From: Bdellovibrionales bacterium
GTDB lineage: Bacteria > Bdellovibrionota > Bdellovibrionia > Bdellovibrionales > CAYMLA01
Assembly (NCBI GenBank): GCA_965217115.1
Contig: OZ244239.1
Location: forward strand, 832,001-896,000
Reading direction: 5' to 3'
Length of the DNA stretch: 64,000 nt
The notes beneath the pieces were generated by a model that saw nothing but the letters and a program-made list of their open reading frames with translations, was not told where the DNA came from and searched no databases. The translations under genes were made by a program, and so were the position numbers. Shown piece after piece: positions 12,945 to 50,843 of the stretch (its first letter is position 1; each line of letters opens with the position of its first letter).

Positions 12945-13096
12945 TTTTTTTCTAGAGTCTCTCCCAAAAGAATCCAGCCCTTTTCTTGCTCAAACAGTCG
13001 TTTGTCACCTTCCATTGCAGAGAAATGCAATGGAAGTCGCCAAGCCAAACTCGCCGAAAAGAACTGGATTCTTTTGGGAGAGACTCTAGAAAAAAA
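12945..13096. repeat. palindromic element copy A (33-bp perfect inverted arms, internal hairpin)
   Basis: tttttttctagagtctctcccaaaagaatccag (12945-12977) is the exact reverse complement of 13064-13096; inner hairpin cttccattgca/tgcaatggaag (13009-13036). Confidence 0.9.
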
Positions 13097-13597
13097 GGCC
13101 GTATTCAATCAATGGGTCAATGGATCTCTAGTGTAATATCAAAGGGAATTGTACAAAAGAAAGACTGGGAAGGCCAAAGTGTTGGTTTAGAAATAGGTCA
13201 TTTCTTCTGGACAAATTCCCTTGAAAGTTTAAAACGAATAATAATAAACCTGGACTGACCTCCATGTATAACAACGCTGTTATCCATGGATAGTTTTAGA
13301 AAGAGAGCCCTTAAGATGAGTCTCTTGGGAACAGTTCCACTATTTATCACAAAGAACCGAAAAACCTCTTTTTAAAACTCTAAACTGACAATCTACGCAG
13401 GAGGTTAGACACCTCAAAAACTCTCAGGCATCGATAAATTGATGTCTGAACTGTTTTTTCGATGGCATGGAATATGTATTCTAGAACCTTGGAAATTAAC
13501 GGTATCAGCCAGATTTAGGAGAATTGGTCTCCCAAGGAAATAGAACGATATCAACAAAAACCCATAATTAAACTGAGCCTTGCTCAAAGGATGTAAA

Positions 13598-13981
13598 ATG
13601 AAAAAAATAATGCTTATAATAGGTTTGTTAAGCTTTTTCTCTGTTGGAGTCAGTTTTGCGAATCACTCAAATAACCATACAGCCCCTCAACAAAAAGAAA
13701 ACCTTAAGAGACTAAAAAGATTGGAAAAAAAATTAGAAAAACTGAGCTACAGAGTTACTGATTTAGAAGATAACTCTCGATCTTCCCAAAACCCTAAGGC
13801 TATTCTCTATTGCGTATGCACTTTTGAAAAAGTAATCAGGGCTTCGGGACTAACAGTATTTTATGCTGACGGTAGCTCATCAGTTGTTGCTTTGGGAGTT
13901 GGGGGTAATTACAGATCTACCCAAGAAGATTGCGAAGGAAGATTGCGAGCAAGTATACCCGCCTGTTCATTAAAGAAATAG
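13598..13981 (+). CDS. hypothetical secreted protein (coiled coil plus Cys-containing C-terminus)
   Basis: AAGGA SD, signal peptide MKKIMLIIGLLSFFSVGVSFA, coiled-coil RLKRLEKKLEKLSYRVTDLE. Confidence 0.7.
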   Translation: MKKIMLIIGLLSFFSVGVSFANHSNNHTAPQQKENLKRLKRLEKKLEKLSYRVTDLEDNSRSSQNPKAILYCVCTFEKVIRASGLTVFYADGSSSVVALGVGGNYRSTQEDCEGRLRASIPACSLKK

Positions 13982-14204
13982 AACCTTAGAGATTATAACA
14001 TGTACCAAAACTAGTTTTTGCTTTTGCGACAACGGCTCTGCTAATACTGGCGAACATCGTTTTCATGATCTTTATAGGTTTTTGTAAATACATGTTCGCC
14101 AGTGTTTTCCGCTTACAAAATATAAAAATTGCACTGGCTATTGACGGACATTTTAAGTAATCCGAGTTGTAAGAATTGCCATTTTAATAAAGTTATAGCT
14201 ATTT

Positions 14205-14557
14205 ATGACGAGTGTGTGCTGTAAAGAGTACGGAGAGAAATTAATTGGAAAATCAGTAATGGTACAAAATATCAGATTTTAACGGAGACTTTGAAAAACT
14301 CACTCAGTATAAATAAAAAAATAGTTATGAAAAATATTGTAACTAGACTGTTCGTTGATCGTCATGGAGGCTCTATTGAGTGCCATGGAATGACGCGAAC
14401 TCCCAAATTTGACCTTCATAGAGAGGTCTTGGAATCTCACTTAGGCCCGAAAATATTGGAGCCTTTAGAAAATAGTCGCGATAAACTCAGTCGGTTAGAA
14501 ATTCGTGGCTTAAGCCGATTGGTGGAGGTGACAGGGATCGAACCTGCGACCTTCTGA
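14205..14557 (+). pseudogene. possible large serine recombinase remnant
   Basis: Fragment VCCKEYGEKLIGKS resembles a degenerate Zn-ribbon (CxxCG.xL.GKS). The downstream ORF ends by reading antisense into the tRNA (LVEVTGIEPAT), as tRNA-targeting recombinase genes often do. Confidence 0.3.
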
Positions 14558-14595
14558 ATGCAAATCAGATGCTCTCCCAACTGAGCTACACCCCC
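14520..14595 (-). tRNA. tRNA-Ala(TGC)
   Basis: GGGGGTGTAGCTCAGTTGGGAGAGCATCTGATTTGCATTCAGAAGGTCGCAGGTTCGATCCCTGTCACCTCCACCA; anticodon TGC, G3:U70 pair. Confidence 0.97.
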
Positions 14596-14724
14596 ACAAA
14601 AGATAAACGGTAATCTCTATTATTCAAGACTTCTGGTCAAGCAAGAAAAAAGGCTGACCAAATACAAATCGAAGGGCTGCTATTTAATTTTTTATTGAAA
14701 ATACAAGAACACACACACAATGAA

Positions 14725-15264
14725 CTAGGCGGAAGCAGATGATACGAATGTACAAAGACGGTCCAGCCACTTCTTTTCCTGATCAATGTCAAAGCCCGCC
14801 GTCTCCGCACCACGTAAAACAGCAACGAAAACTCTTTTCAAAGTATCCACCTCATCCCCGCTATCATCTCCCTCCAGAGATTCTTCAATAGCCTCAAAAA
14901 CACTTAAAACATCAGGAGTTGTTACCACCTTAGGCAGGCGATCCATATCCACACCACAATCTTGATTCGGCTTAAAACCCACCAACACATCCGTTAACAA
15001 AATTTTCCTATCTTCTTTGAAGTTCACCTGTAAGAAAGAGTTTCCCTCTCCATCTGTTCTCTCCAAAATTTCATCAATATCTTCAAGTTTAAATAAAATT
15101 GATTTTCGGTCTATTTTCTGCTCTATCCTTATCGAACTCTCAAAAGCCCCCTTAATAACCAGACCCTTTGAACTCTCAACAAAATCCAACACCTGCTTGA
15201 GCATTTTCCCTGACTCTCTCTGGCCTGCTGAATTATTCAAATATGACCTCCCCTCAAAAAACAT
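14725..15264 (-). CDS. hypothetical protein
   Basis: 179 aa ORF with protein-like composition; start uncertain. Confidence 0.7.
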   Translation of the reverse strand: MFFEGRSYLNNSAGQRESGKMLKQVLDFVESSKGLVIKGAFESSIRIEQKIDRKSILFKLEDIDEILERTDGEGNSFLQVNFKEDRKILLTDVLVGFKPNQDCGVDMDRLPKVVTTPDVLSVFEAIEESLEGDDSGDEVDTLKRVFVAVLRGAETAGFDIDQEKKWLDRLCTFVSSASA

Positions 15265-15502
15265 CTACAAAGTACACATCGTCCAACACAACCACGCACT
15301 TAACAGAATTTAAGATGAAAGCCTAAAACTAGCGTTTCGACCATTTATTAAGAAATAAGGTTAAGTCACAGAAGAAATAGCCGCCTAGCAGCAGATCATT
15401 AAGAATGTCCCAACTTGAGATTATCTCCAATTCATTATATGGTCACAAAATCATAATAGCCTGGCCTAAGAAAGGGTCGCCAAAAGTAAGAGGTTAAAGC
15501 CC

Positions 15503-15823
15503 ATGTTAATAACAAGATGGCAAGCTCCACAGCTTCCCACAGTGACACAAATCAAAATAATCTTCAAAACAGAAGACCTCGAAGCCCAGCAAGAAGAGTA
15601 TCTCCCAGGAGAAGAGGTTCGTGAGCATCGCCACTCCTTTGATGAAGTCCGCATGGTCGTCGCAGGATCACTAGCCATAAACGTCTCCGGAAACCAACTT
15701 ATTCTACACGCTGGAGATAAAATAGAAATTCCCTCCAATACCAAGCACTCTACAAAAAACAATGATCCTGAAAAGAGCTGCACTTGTATCTATGCCAGAC
15801 GCCCATTTAAAATACACACTTAG
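15503..15823 (+). CDS. cupin domain protein
   Basis: EHRHSFDEVRMVVAG...L.AGDKIEIPSNTKHS cupin motifs. Confidence 0.85.
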   Translation: MLITRWQAPQLPTVTQIKIIFKTEDLEAQQEEYLPGEEVREHRHSFDEVRMVVAGSLAINVSGNQLILHAGDKIEIPSNTKHSTKNNDPEKSCTCIYARRPFKIHT

Positions 15824-15952
15824 ACCACCAGCTAAACTACAGCTAAACCACACAAAAAATCTAAAACCCCTGGATTAATGGACCTGCAAAGACTATCATT
15901 GTAAGTATAATAACGCAGCACTTGATAACTCTACCCAGATAAAGGTTCGACC

Positions 15953-49522: not shown

Positions 49523-49589
49523 CCTGACCTCTTACCTATGGGGGGTTGTTGCTCTTATACTTTTTATATTTGATTTAGGCAAATGACAC

Positions 49590-49702
49590 GCTATTTTAAT
49601 GGGCTTTATTAGTTAGCTCAGACATGCGTTTGGCAGCGCCGCTCGCCATGCGAGCAGCGCACCAAGCCGAACTCGCTAAATAATAAAGCCCATTAAAATA
49701 GC
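49590..49702 (+). repeat. palindromic element copy B (22-bp perfect arms plus 68-bp core)
   Basis: gctattttaatgggctttatta (49590-49611) / taataaagcccattaaaatagc (49681-49702); core 49613-49680. Confidence 0.92.
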
Positions 49703-49765
49703 TCTCCTTGAAATCGCATTTGACTGGGAGCAACAGGGGGCCGGGGGCTGGGAACAACGGGGGCC

Positions 49766-49949
49766 GGAGGAGGGGGAATAACGGAAGCGGAGGAGGGGGA
49801 ACAACGGAAGCGGAGGAGGGGGAACAACGGGGGCGGAGGAGGGGGAACAACGGGGGCGGAGGAGGGGGAACAACGGGAGCGGAGGAGGGGGAACAACGGA
49901 ACCGGAGGAGGGGGAACAACGGGGGCGGAGGAGGGGGAACAACGGGAGA
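49766..49949 (+). repeat. G-rich tandem repeat, 8 x 23 bp
   Basis: Unit ggaggagggggaacaacgg(gggc/aagc/gagc/aacc); degenerate units also at 49727-49765. Confidence 0.95.
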
Positions 49950-49974
49950 GGGAGAGGGACACTGCTCCCACACT

Positions 49975-50067
49975 CCGGCCCCCGCTGTTTGCTCGCCTCC
50001 GGACCCGCTGTTCCCCCGCCTCTGGACCCGCTGTTTCCCCGCCTCCGGGCCGCTGTTTGCTCGCCTC
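49975..50067 (-). repeat. inverted, diverged array of the same G-rich unit (about 4 x 22-24 bp)
   Basis: ccg(g/a)cccgctgtt(tg/cc)..cgcct units; reverse complement aggcgggggaacagcgggtccgg resembles aggagggggaacaacgggggcgg. Confidence 0.8.
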
Positions 50068-50638
50068 TCAGGAAATAGATACTGGAGCAGCATTGACATC
50101 TTTAAAAACACCACAAAGCTGACTCCAAGTGGTTTTATCTTATTCTCTCAAAAATAAATTGCCCTATATATTCACCAGTATTTCTATGCACACCCTCTTT
50201 AAAATCCGTGTCCTATGTTCAAGATAGCTTAAGTCTATGTAAATTAATTATCAATTTAGCTAAATTAAAACTTGATGCCTCATCGGATTACTAGGTTAAT
50301 GATCTTCTTAACATCACTCAAATTTTCCTGGTCATTCCCTTAAAATCAATTTTGAAACCAATCAGGCTATGTGGAGCCCACATCTCATCTTCACATAATT
50401 CTTTGATCTTAAATCAAAACTATGTGTGACTCACCTTTTCCTCACCACCTTTTTGGGCATCTTTTTGATTCAATACTTCAAAATTTTCCAATCACTTTTT
50501 AATTGTTCTAAAACACAAAAACTCTCACTCTCCGCCAATGTTTATTATAAACAAAGACCTAACACCTCGATCCATCGAAAAGCCTCCAAAGAACTTTACA
50601 CAAACAGGTCTGGACAAGAATAAACTAATACTTTTTTT

Positions 50639-50694
50639 CCGCTGTCCCCTCTCCTCCGGCCCGCTGTCCCCCCTCCTCCGTCTCCGCTGTCCCC
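50639..50694 (-). repeat. third G-rich array (about 2.5 units) next to copy C
   Basis: ccgctgtcccctctcctccggc / ccgctgtccccctcctccgtct / ccgctgtcccc. Confidence 0.75.
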
Positions 50695-50710
50695 AGTCAA
50701 ATGCAGATTT

Positions 50711-50843
50711 CAAAGGAGGTTTTTTTAAATGCCCTTCTATTCTTTAGCGAGTTCGGCTTGGTGCGCTGCTCGCATGGCGAGCGGCGCTGCCAAACGCATG
50801 TCTGAGCTAAAGAATAGAAGGGCATTTAAAAAAACCTCCTTTG
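50711..50843 (-). repeat. palindromic element copy C (38-bp perfect arms; core identical to copy B, inverted)
   Basis: caaaggaggtttttttaaatgcccttctattctttagc (50711-50748) / 50806-50843; 50743-50810 is the exact reverse complement of 49613-49680. Confidence 0.92.

Follow-up and report, generated by a model that had tools for sequence, protein, structure and literature searches.

Repetitive palindromes, among them REP, ERIC, Correia and RPE, shape the genomes of bacteria and, to our knowledge, are always conserved at their ends. The Correia (NEMIS/CREE) and ERIC/IRU elements of Neisseria and enterobacteria are 100-150-bp imperfect-palindrome, MITE-like repeats with conserved terminal repeats and a variable centre. 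REP and REPIN sequences are hairpin-forming extragenic repeats that are mobilised by RAYT, a Y1 HUH transposase, and presumably recognised in the form of folded single strands, and integron attC sites carry, at the base of the stem, the R''/R' box consensus RYYYAAC...GTTRRRY. Eukaryotic foldback (FB) transposons and parvovirus termini (hairpin-primed replication) offer a mechanistic likeness only.

Here we describe hairpins in which, in contrast with such palindromes, a lopsided centre of 55-75 nt is kept constant in predatory bacteria of at least seven families, whereas the arms turn over yet stay paired. Three copies (A, B and C) lie in the window, that is, the whole stretch of 64,000 nt analysed, and are the visible part of a large, hitherto undescribed hairpin repeat family restricted to Bdellovibrionales. 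We favour, at a probability of roughly 0.6, the reading that they are lineage-specific, non-autonomous, fold-back, MITE-like hairpin mobile DNA elements whose arms are rebuilt by DNA templating.

Three Hairpin Copies and Their Surroundings

12945..13096, + strand: copy A, a type A subfamily hairpin of 152 nt; inner hairpin CTTCCATTGCA/TGCAATGGAAG
49571..49729, + strand: copy B with family termini; 5' end TTGATTTAGGCAAATGA, hairpin 49590-49702, 3' tail CTCTCCTTGAAATCGCATTTGACTGGG
50684..50852, - strand: copy C with termini; 5' end TGATTTTGGCAAAGG, hairpin 50711-50843, 3' tail TTTGAAATCTGCATTTGACTGGGG

The first-pass annotation had delimited these copies, and all its coordinates and counts hold, but the real ends of all three lie beyond the limits it gave. 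The similarity of A and B was reproduced (16/20 for 12988-13007 versus 49616-49635, 14/15 for 13040-13054 versus 49662-49676), the 68-nt block 49613-49680 of B recurs without differences in the reverse complement of C, and the outer arms pair perfectly over 33 (A), 22 (B) and 38 bp (C) from the ends first assigned. The compensatory GGG/CCC swap between the arms of B and C was also found. The description of the arms as copy-specific fails for A, whose arms are common to about 42 copies at 94-100% identity. Since an iterated nhmmer profile seeded with B retrieves A-type copies at E values of about 1e-9 to 1e-11, the kinship of A with B and C goes beyond chance. Computed as single-stranded DNA, the folding energies are -51.4 (A), -39.6 (B) and -55.8 kcal/mol (C), with z scores of -13.0, -9.7 and -14.5, respectively, which 0 of 200 dinucleotide shuffles equal.

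Copy A is a passenger within an element bounded by terminal inverted repeats (TIRs). No target duplication was found around this carrier; genome-wide, a perfect 8-bp duplication accompanies 9 of 21 end pairs of type A carriers.

12896..13358, + strand: TIR-bounded carrier enclosing copy A, about 463 bp; ends GGCTCTTTATGACAAACAATAGTGGAG and CCACTATTTATCACAAAGAACC

Copies B and C, inverted relative to each other, delimit a small islet of 1.2 kb with these features within it and at its borders:

47717..49522, - strand: peptidase S49 (SppA-like) gene, start toward copy B; left border of the islet
49703..49978, + strand: about 12 tandem 23-bp G-rich units (GGAGGAGGGGGAACAACGGGGGC)
49982..50069, - strand: inverted 23-bp units, C-rich on the + strand
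50639..50703, - strand: three copy C tail units of 22-23 bp, G-rich on the - strand
50850..51536, - strand: anchor gene, lipoyl ligase/transferase-like (LplA-B_cat), 228 aa

The array at 49703-49978 is an expanded version of the element's conserved 3' tail; in one source-sample contig its copy number varies by 7 units (161 bp), and together with the inverted units at 49982-50069 it forms a second long palindrome, which is imperfect. Copy C, in sense orientation, abuts the stop codon of the anchor gene, and the TGA (50850-50852) falls within the 5' end of the copy.

A Constant Centre Between Covarying Arms

The proposal that conservation concerns the structure and a single asymmetric internal loop, instead of the stem sequence, was borne out, in that both helices covary. 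In the outer helix, double changes occur at 14/14 pairs, the observed score is reached by 0 of 500 shuffles, and 84% of cells are paired compared to 33-43% when the partners are slid. Likewise, 80 of the 84 distinct inner segments fold as hairpins with z < -2. The loop strands TCARACATNCGTTYGKCA and GCCAAKCCGAACTC are near-invariant across at least seven bacterial families, and the central module is made up of the 5' loop strand, an inner hairpin of free sequence and the 3' strand YGCCAAKCCGAACTC, giving an asymmetric centre that is flanked by long arms.

The related suggestion that the element is the reverse of an ordinary MITE proved too simple, because the termini of subfamilies are conserved. 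These are TTGATTTGGGCAAAG...CTTTGAAATC in the B/C subfamily of this genome (G000), ACTGGCCCAC...GTGGGCCAGT in that of G306 and TTCAGGAGAGAA in that of G363; the type A carrier likewise has ends conserved among its copies, and the copies of G344 have outer ends that are only loosely alike. Moreover, arms are conserved family-wide in G363, G306 and G000 type A in the manner of ordinary MITEs, which counts against the fold-back reading that we favour.

Pairing of the arms is nearly perfect: 59 distinct arms comprise 1089 Watson-Crick pairs and 36 mismatches, with 4 G·T, and the 14 copies examined in G344 have 2 irregularities among 644 paired arm positions at a whole-copy identity of only about 78-97%, the lower values being those of matches that reach into the arms. 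Because the arms are nearly without G·U-type pairs, a stable sense RNA from the element is not favoured by the sequence. Among mismatches, A·C exceeds G·T (16 versus 4), an excess that is unexplained and counts against our preferred reading.

Some arms incorporate host sequence. The 3' arm of one copy (L028) carries an inverted copy of the final 22 nt of tRNA-Glu, and long inverted host sequence is known from this copy only, which counts against the fold-back step. The arms of four other tRNA-adjacent copies extend 1-3 nt into CCA, and in two further copies (L157 and L163) the stop codon is covered by the arm. In G145, unrelated arms surround identical 73-nt centres, a combination for which gene conversion between copies could be an alternative source.

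A Repeat Family Confined to Bdellovibrionales

A covariance-model scan recovered 106 copies in this 2.17-Mb genome, 81 in G306 and 14 in G305, while nhmmer gave 113 non-overlapping copies in G000. Across the order, the covariance model matched 26 of 151 sampled genomes in 18 of 68 genera, and an exact-pattern scan was positive for 19/384 genomes with 0 matches for the reversed-pattern control. Extending the exact pattern to 185,579 species yielded 21 stretches, every one from Bdellovibrionales MAGs, and scans of viral contigs, phages and plasmids gave 0 matches. In genomes of 2-4 Mb, independent bursts have raised the element to about 100 copies. No similar element was found in Rfam or in the literature searched: against Rfam 15, no described family reached its gathering score for the hairpins, in the window the threshold is passed by rRNA and tRNA alone, and the scores that the hairpins do obtain are sub-threshold noise from miRNA precursors (e.g., 43 bits versus a gathering score of 84).

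Mobility and Placement

Filled and empty sites in sister genomes, a comparison that the first-pass annotation had proposed, show mobility. For example, an insert of 628 bp in G306 corresponds to 38 bp at the G305 site. The G305/G306 pair offers one clean empty site with a 9-bp duplication, G305 retains deletion remnants at two sites, and at 3/6 junctions the sequence is replaced by 23-103 unrelated nt. Two convergent genes with stops separated by 8 nt in G348 enclose a 161-bp palindrome in G344, where no target duplication was found. Insertion signatures are inconsistent across carriers (8 bp in type A, 9 bp in G306, none in G344), an observation that also counts against the explanation we prefer.

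A convergent gene lies downstream of 58/73 B/C copies in G000, only 3/73 lie between divergent genes, and in 10/20 G344 copies the arm begins -17 to +20 nt from the upstream stop codon. Overall, the elements are shown to be repeated, structured, restricted to one clade, polymorphic between sister genomes, located at gene or tRNA 3' ends, and housed in different carriers.

Search for a Mobilising Enzyme

The window holds no visible cognate enzyme, as initially noted, and a genome-wide search was also without one, which counts against the reading that we favour. TnpB-type and IS110-type genes were not found in G000, paralogue clustering of our own ORF calls for this genome gave no transposase-like multicopy gene, and recombinases or transposases account for 0 of 75 islet and anchor ORFs and 0 of 69 neighbouring ORFs in other genomes. 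Inverted pairs in G306, inspected for signs of an autonomous relative, share no common cargo.

The hairpins were also compared with several described site types. With filters off, the covariance model detected no core in three IS200-like loci of G306 and one locus of G007 (best score 15.8 bits), as would be looked for in an IS200/IS605 PATE. The sole non-Xer tyrosine recombinase scores 46 bits with NCBIfam integrase_gron, for which the cut-off is 265. In the alignment the stem base varies and is without attC boxes, and the strands that are conserved lie inside the element. Neither strand has the T-run of an intrinsic terminator after any of the three copies; T and A runs are situated within the stems. 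The dif site of Bdellovibrio bacteriovorus HD100 is TCTTCTGATAAGTTATATTATGTAACGG in the part of the source consulted (PMC2731167), and the core is unlike this sequence, which is the site of HD100 and not of the present genome.

Origin and Role of the Hairpins

Under the reading of non-autonomous fold-back elements, arm sequence would drift or be replaced while complementarity is restored at the DNA level. A putative trans-acting enzyme would recognise the conserved centre in extruded or single-stranded DNA, copying would take only one arm and the centre, and the second arm would derive from fold-back (self-primed) synthesis that at times runs into host DNA. Such synthesis would account for arms that pair perfectly and without wobble, as well as for tRNA ends or stop codons that recur in inverted form. 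The hairpins behind stop codons probably act as, or are tolerated as, putative two-way transcription stops, and probably constitute junctions that collect accessory genes. Since carriers with different ends house the same centre, the latter could alternatively be a host-useful module that was captured repeatedly, instead of a recognition site.

A bolder version of the fold-back reading, which we think rather unlikely, is that this transposition mode is new for bacteria: the centre would be recognised in folded DNA, and one arm plus centre would be transferred and joined via its 5' end immediately after a gene or tRNA. Its 3' end would then snap back and be elongated with its own 5' arm as template, occasionally as far as host DNA. 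Each new copy would therefore be born a perfect palindrome with an arm sequence that is free to drift, and the resulting hairpins may seed hotspots for the build-up of accessory genes.

Alternatively, the centre might act mainly at the RNA level, as a 3'-UTR or tRNA-trailer hairpin for termination, RNase III-type processing or 3'-end protection that spread only by hitch-hiking in various MITEs and local duplications. This would suit elements that begin at or a few nt past stop codons and right after five complete tRNA genes, always in sense orientation, that lie mainly between convergent genes and avoid promoter regions, and that hold the same centre within unrelated carrier ends; U·G is also commonest at one conserved position of helix P2 (29/45 sequences). 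However, G·U-type pairs at 4/1125 arm positions are unlike selected RNA helices, the hairpins have no subsequent U-run, and no Rfam match rises above noise. Islet genes are antisense to the hairpins in arrays ((div, conv) 20 versus (co, co) 12), and in other genomes gene ends are abutted both ways, 13 sense versus 8 antisense among the copies listed. A mainly RNA-level role appears doubtful. Quite improbable, in our judgement, is an integron-like dispersed cassette system in which a recombinase acting on the folded strand, as IntI does on attC, would insert and excise accessory modules where housekeeping genes end (3' side). Hairpins do bound or punctuate about 17 islets in G000 beside housekeeping anchors, and among their accessory genes are those for LRR, ankyrin and FG-GAP proteins, a RES-Xre pair and Mrr; in G000, G115 and G145, modules are flanked by direct repeats of the gene or tRNA 3' end plus hairpin; and structure is more conserved than sequence, with unpaired bases present. 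Against such a system, integron integrase is absent, no recombinase lies near any examined copy, the conserved part is central and not at a stem base with RYYYAAC/GTTRRRY boxes, and many copies are solitary, cargo-free insertions, with a core unlike the B. bacteriovorus dif as given in the consulted part of PMC2731167.

The link to REP and RAYT drawn in the first-pass annotation fails, and we regard REP/REPIN-like substrates of a RAYT (Y1 HUH) transposase or of IS200/IS605 TnpA as extremely unlikely. In favour of such substrates, the elements are intergenic hairpin repeats, and Y1_Tnp-like genes are frequent in the order, with several copies in some bearers (17 matches in G005, 11 scored in G306, 7 in G145). 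Against them, G000, at 99.4% completeness, combines 106 copies with 0 Y1 genes. Y1-like genes occur in 304/384 genomes of the order whether or not the element is present, compared to about 13/19 pattern-positive genomes, and none is among the listed matches for G095, G127, G305, G344, G363 and G364. No copy is flanked by a Y1 gene, the IS200-like loci of G306 and G007 are without the core, and the GTAG-type foot motif is absent; a replication-strand bias of type A, whose sense strand is the leading strand in only 9/40, would fit such substrates.

If the centre is an enzyme recognition site, a structure-specific DNA enzyme awaits discovery, and if the arms are self-templated, they would represent a new mode of DNA movement. 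In G000, almost every small islet of accessory genes has these hairpins at its seams. They disrupt short-read assemblies and can give housekeeping genes stop codons and C-terminal tails; they are therefore relevant to the annotation of Bdellovibrionales MAGs.

Comparison With Known Systems

The hairpins resemble Correia and ERIC elements, which are of similar size, non-coding and intergenic, often at gene ends, with the whole element forming one long hairpin present in tens to hundreds of copies without an adjacent transposase; one subfamily here also has a short target duplication on insertion. Unlike those families, the element is confined to Bdellovibrionales, and its asymmetric centre is shared by at least seven bacterial families, with arms that vary from copy to copy but pair almost perfectly. 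REP and REPIN sequences share hairpin-forming extragenic repeats and bursts in single genomes, but there is no RAYT in G000 and no association across 384 genomes, and the conserved motif is central instead of at the hairpin foot, in an element 4-8 times longer than REP. As in integron attC sites, structure is conserved over sequence, unpaired bases give polarity, and copies lie directly behind gene stop codons and punctuate accessory-gene arrays; in contrast to attC, IntI is absent, the conserved sequence is mid-element and not in R/L boxes at the base, and copies are dispersed over about 20 loci and not gathered in one array beside an integrase. FB transposons and parvovirus termini differ in that the hosts here are bacterial and the elements far shorter, with no evidence of homology; as in those systems, long inverted arms fold back, and self-primed copying, which is only inferred here, would give perfect arms.

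Copies of the Element in the Window Genome

The first-pass annotation had described three hairpin copies in the window, and their positions were confirmed together with all of the counts claimed for them:

12945..13096: copy A
49590..49702: copy B
50711..50843: copy C (inverted)

Our recount returned the matches between A and B (16/20 and 14/15) and the identical 68-nt block common to B and inverted C. Folded as single-stranded DNA, A, B, and C have z-scores of -13.0, -9.7, and -14.5, respectively, and 0/200 dinucleotide shuffles folded as well. Because an nhmmer profile iterated from B recovers A-type copies (E about 1e-9 to 1e-11), the relation between A and B/C is statistical and not just visual.

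The window belongs to a single contig of 2,170,531 bp (39.6% G+C) of the genome designated G000, in which nhmmer detected 113 non-overlapping copies of the core. The scan for further copies proposed in the first pass, carried out with a covariance model (CM) derived from 45 diverse copies, gave 106. These fall into two groups: type A, with about 40 near-identical copies, and type B/C, with about 70. BLAST places the whole 152-bp A unit about 42 times in G000, at 94–100% identity. The type B/C inner hairpin is G+C-rich (GCGSCGCTCGC/GCGAGCAKCGC), and the type occupies about 20 loci, often as arrays.

Type A and Its Carrier

Alignment of the flanks of type A copies revealed that this hairpin lies within a longer element, a carrier, whose position in the window is listed here with those of nearby features:

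12896..13358: carrier element containing A, with inverted ends GGTTCTTTATGACAAACAATAGTGGAG and CCACTATTTATCACAAAGAACC
6772..11686, - strand: complete rRNA operon (5S, 23S, 16S), copy A about 1.2 kb upstream
10007..10080: tRNA within the rRNA operon spacer
14523..14595: one further tRNA

A perfect 8-bp direct repeat flanks 9/21 carrier end pairs in G000, with 7/8 bp matching at two more; no target duplication was seen at the carrier copy in the window. Since the type A hairpin sits inside a longer carrier of the TIR type, the arms of A are family-wide and spread by an ordinary carrier. Thus, of the earlier description of the arms as perfect (33, 22, and 38 bp) and copy-specific, the first part is accurate and the second does not apply to A. 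The type A sense strand is leading in 9/40 copies and lagging in 31/40, whereas 58% of the genes in G000 are leading.

Type B/C Units, Tails, and Islets

The true type B/C unit exceeds the limits first assigned to it. It starts with TTGATTTGGGCAAAG and ends with CTTTGAAATCTGCR.TTGACTGGGAACARCGGGG, the first part of which pairs with the 5' end of the unit. At no fewer than 20 loci a same-strand gene precedes the unit, which starts at the stop codon of this gene or a few nt past it, and at several the TGA of TTGATTT serves as that stop codon. The relevant window features are:

50850..51536: lipoyl-ligase-like gene, whose stop codon is the TGA in the 5' end of C
49703..50069 and 50639..50703: 23-bp G-rich tandem array with its own inverted copies, unit GGAGGAGGGGGAACAACGGGGGC

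Gene context was scored for 73 B/C copies: the downstream gene is convergent in 58 and the upstream gene co-directional in 50, and divergent genes flank 3. A small ORF or SD-ATG in the B/C arms was considered and rejected, as it is unconserved across subfamilies. The 23-bp array beside B, with a period indivisible by 3, arose by expansion of the 3' tail that B/C-type elements conserve. Its length varies: seven units (161 bp) are missing in one contig of the source sample, for which all data are Logan contigs that break at repeats (4 runs, one sample, one study). An apparent B-to-C joint in these contigs was dismissed as a repeat artifact.

No convincing gene was seen in the roughly 1 kb between the inverted copies B and C. 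About 17 islets in G000 are bounded by comparable inverted or direct hairpin sets; their genes are typical accessory ones (LRR, ankyrin, FG-GAP, RES-Xre, Mrr, LysR, and many orphans) and their anchors are housekeeping genes (PolA, PurF, HldA, MltG, RlmL, and others). The 75 islet and anchor ORFs examined in G000 include no recombinase or transposase. One hairpin-abutted anchor (L104:9297-10460; G000:C1:534193-535359, - strand) is a topoisomerase VI subunit A/Spo11-like protein with TP6A_N and Toprim, a protein unusual in bacteria.

Structure and Covariation

It had been claimed that structure and a loop are conserved and not the stem sequence, and this is correct. We assessed covariation in 45 copies drawn from at least 20 genomes: each of the 14 outer-helix pairs has varied at both of its positions, and 84% of cells are paired. 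None of 500 shuffles reached the observed score, and sliding the partner strand cut pairing to 33–43%. Because the MAFFT alignment does not follow the structure of the inner hairpin, the 84 distinct inner segments were folded individually; 80/84 fold as hairpins with z < -2. The inner hairpins use at least five unrelated stem sequences, with a nested extra hairpin in two lineages, and both loop strands are invariant or nearly so in the alignment. One G000 locus (L102; G000:C1:427516-430357) holds a subfamily with an extra 34-nt hairpin nested in the apical loop, together with three truncated copies that consist of the nested hairpin and the 3' half only, each preceded by tail-like G-rich units.

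Across 59 distinct arms we counted 1089 Watson-Crick pairs and 36 mismatches, including 4 G·T and 16 A·C. Helices selected as RNA normally tolerate G·U, so complementarity nearly free of G·T points, on the evidence of base pairing, to templating at the DNA level. No U-run was found 3' of the hairpins, and comparison with described RNA families (Rfam, gathering and E-value modes) found nothing similar to the element: only rRNA and tRNA were matched, apart from miRNA-hairpin noise below threshold. Other motifs were also considered: a sigma-54-like TGGCAC-N-TTGC in the core was rejected (its spacing varies, 4 to 6), and the K-turn, loop E, and 11-nt receptor motifs did not fit when compared by eye.

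Distribution

The exact core pattern occurs in 19/384 genomes of the order, and a reversed control gave 0 matches. In a search of one genome per species (185,579 species), each of the 21 stretches with the pattern bears the label Bdellovibrionales, Bdellovibrionaceae, Pseudobdellovibrionaceae, or Bdellovibrionia. The pattern is also present in 14 metagenome contigs; no match to the element came from viral contigs, phages, or plasmids. The CM shows that the exact pattern undercounts the element: 26 of the 151 sampled genomes of the order (completeness ≥90%) are positive, representing 18/68 genera and seven families besides that of the window, with 0/22 positive in genus g31. Independent bursts are visible in separate genomes, with 81 CM copies in G306 and at least 29, 28, and 18 matches in G344, G363, and G007, respectively (G numbers other than G000 designate other Bdellovibrionales genomes). 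The last three counts come from scoring no more than 29 candidates in each genome, a ceiling that G344 reached.

Filled and Empty Sites

Relatives were compared for empty sites, as had been suggested in the first pass, and such sites were found. The genomes G305 and G306 belong to the same genus, and their flanking genes are about 89–93% identical. At one locus, the 38 bp of G305 correspond in G306 to an insert of 628 bp, in which two 216-nt hairpin units in inverted orientation enclose 200 bp. Among six further junctions, one is a clean empty site and shows a 9-bp duplication (CAYCTGTTA); at two, remnants left by deletion of the element persist in G305; and at the other three its place is taken by 23–103 unrelated nt. 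A 161-bp palindrome of G344 separates two convergent genes and comes within 3 nt of one of their stop codons. At the matching site in G348 the spacing between the two stop codons is 8 nt, with G347 comparably compact; thus, the whole palindrome is an insertion, without duplication. The idea that arms are copies of the local 3' UTR was rejected for this case (locus L162), as the entire palindrome is absent from G348. In the relatives searched for empty sites behind tRNA-Glu (18 genomes of the genus) and behind tRNA-Ala (9 genomes), the sequence that follows the tRNA gene is invariably unrelated. Insertion signatures thus differ from case to case (8 bp, 9 bp, or none), which suggests that the center resides in several carriers, or that there is more than one route.

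Behavior of the Arms

The element had been called the reverse of an ordinary MITE. This is only partly so: in G363, in G306, and in type A of G000 the copies share their arm sequence, the pattern of ordinary MITEs. In G344 a center of roughly 107 nt is well conserved: matches confined to it have about 90–99% identity, and those extending into the 32–78-nt outer arms about 78–87%. Even so divergent, the arms contain only 2 irregularities in 644 paired positions of 14 copies (14/20 parsed by script, six with irregular centers being left out). In G145, the arms on identical 73-nt centers are unrelated, save for about 7 bp beside the center and about 20 nt at the tips.

Some palindromes include host sequence. 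Five copies lie directly behind complete tRNA genes in the same orientation, and in four of these the palindrome enters the CCA by 1–3 nt. In the fifth (L028), the final 22 nt of tRNA-Glu recur in inverted form within the 3' arm. At two further loci (L157 and L163), the upstream stop codon lies inside the palindrome. Since a functional tRNA end must be the original, the 3' arm was, at least behind the tRNA genes, copied from the 5' side. Just downstream of the tRNA-Glu hairpin there is a second, unrelated repeat of about 90 nt (L028:1630-1718, genome G330), also present at 80–91% identity on several contigs of G323, G329, and G331 of the same genus.

Search for a Cognate Enzyme

The proposed REP/RAYT link is not borne out. 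G000 has no Y1/RAYT, TnpB-type, or IS110-type genes, and paralogue clustering of our own ORF calls revealed no transposase-like multicopy gene. Y1_Tnp-like ORFs with weak scores (about 180–290 aa) occur in 304/384 Bdellovibrionales genomes, often 5 to 11 or more in each, and look like an expanded, divergent HUH-like family; among the matches listed there are none for several element-rich genomes, and the core is absent from the IS200-like loci of G306 and G007. The wide inverted pairs in G306 have no cargo in common, and we rejected them as a source of an autonomous partner; all 69 neighboring ORFs examined in other genomes are housekeeping genes.

The tyrosine recombinases of G000 are XerC-like, XerD-like, and one 366-aa integrase far below the IntI cut-off; the genome has no IntI. 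Its single reverse transcriptase (RT) is retron-type (315 aa; locus L063, G000:C1:1868639-1869175), and its best NCBIfam match is to retron St85, at 131 bits against a cut-off of 235. As the enzyme of the element this RT was rejected, since it was not found in 5 other element-bearing genomes. Its neighbors are an upstream XRE-type HTH gene, two small membrane-protein genes, and an apparent restriction-enzyme gene fragment, and the locus is probably a defense locus unrelated to the hairpins.

Possible Mechanism and Comparison With Known Elements

The element is clade-restricted, structured, mobile, and non-coding, with a conserved asymmetric center. We infer that the center is conserved since mobility depends on it, a trans-acting enzyme recognizing the folded DNA, and that the arms could vary freely since pairing alone would matter. 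One arm and the center would be transferred, and the other arm would be made by snap-back synthesis with occasional overshoot. If true, snap-back synthesis would account for the wobble-free perfect arms, for their fast divergence, and for the inverted host ends. Alternatively, the arms may be kept complementary by mismatch correction templated by the hairpin, the centers may be exchanged between copies by gene conversion, or a module useful to the host may have been captured repeatedly. That the family hides a new mode of DNA mobility we regard as unlikely, with a chance of one in five.

Among known systems, the element lacks the features of integron attC sites for which it was tested. Mimicry of dif was likewise rejected: the core is unlike the dif of B. 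bacteriovorus (PMC2731167) and did not show the dif features tested. Literature searches on palindromic, miniature inverted, or extragenic repeats of Bdellovibrio and Bdellovibrionota turned up no description of such an element. The closest known kinds are palindromic MITEs of the Correia/ERIC type and REPINs; unlike these, the present element has no RAYT link, is confined to one order, and combines a conserved center with variable arms.
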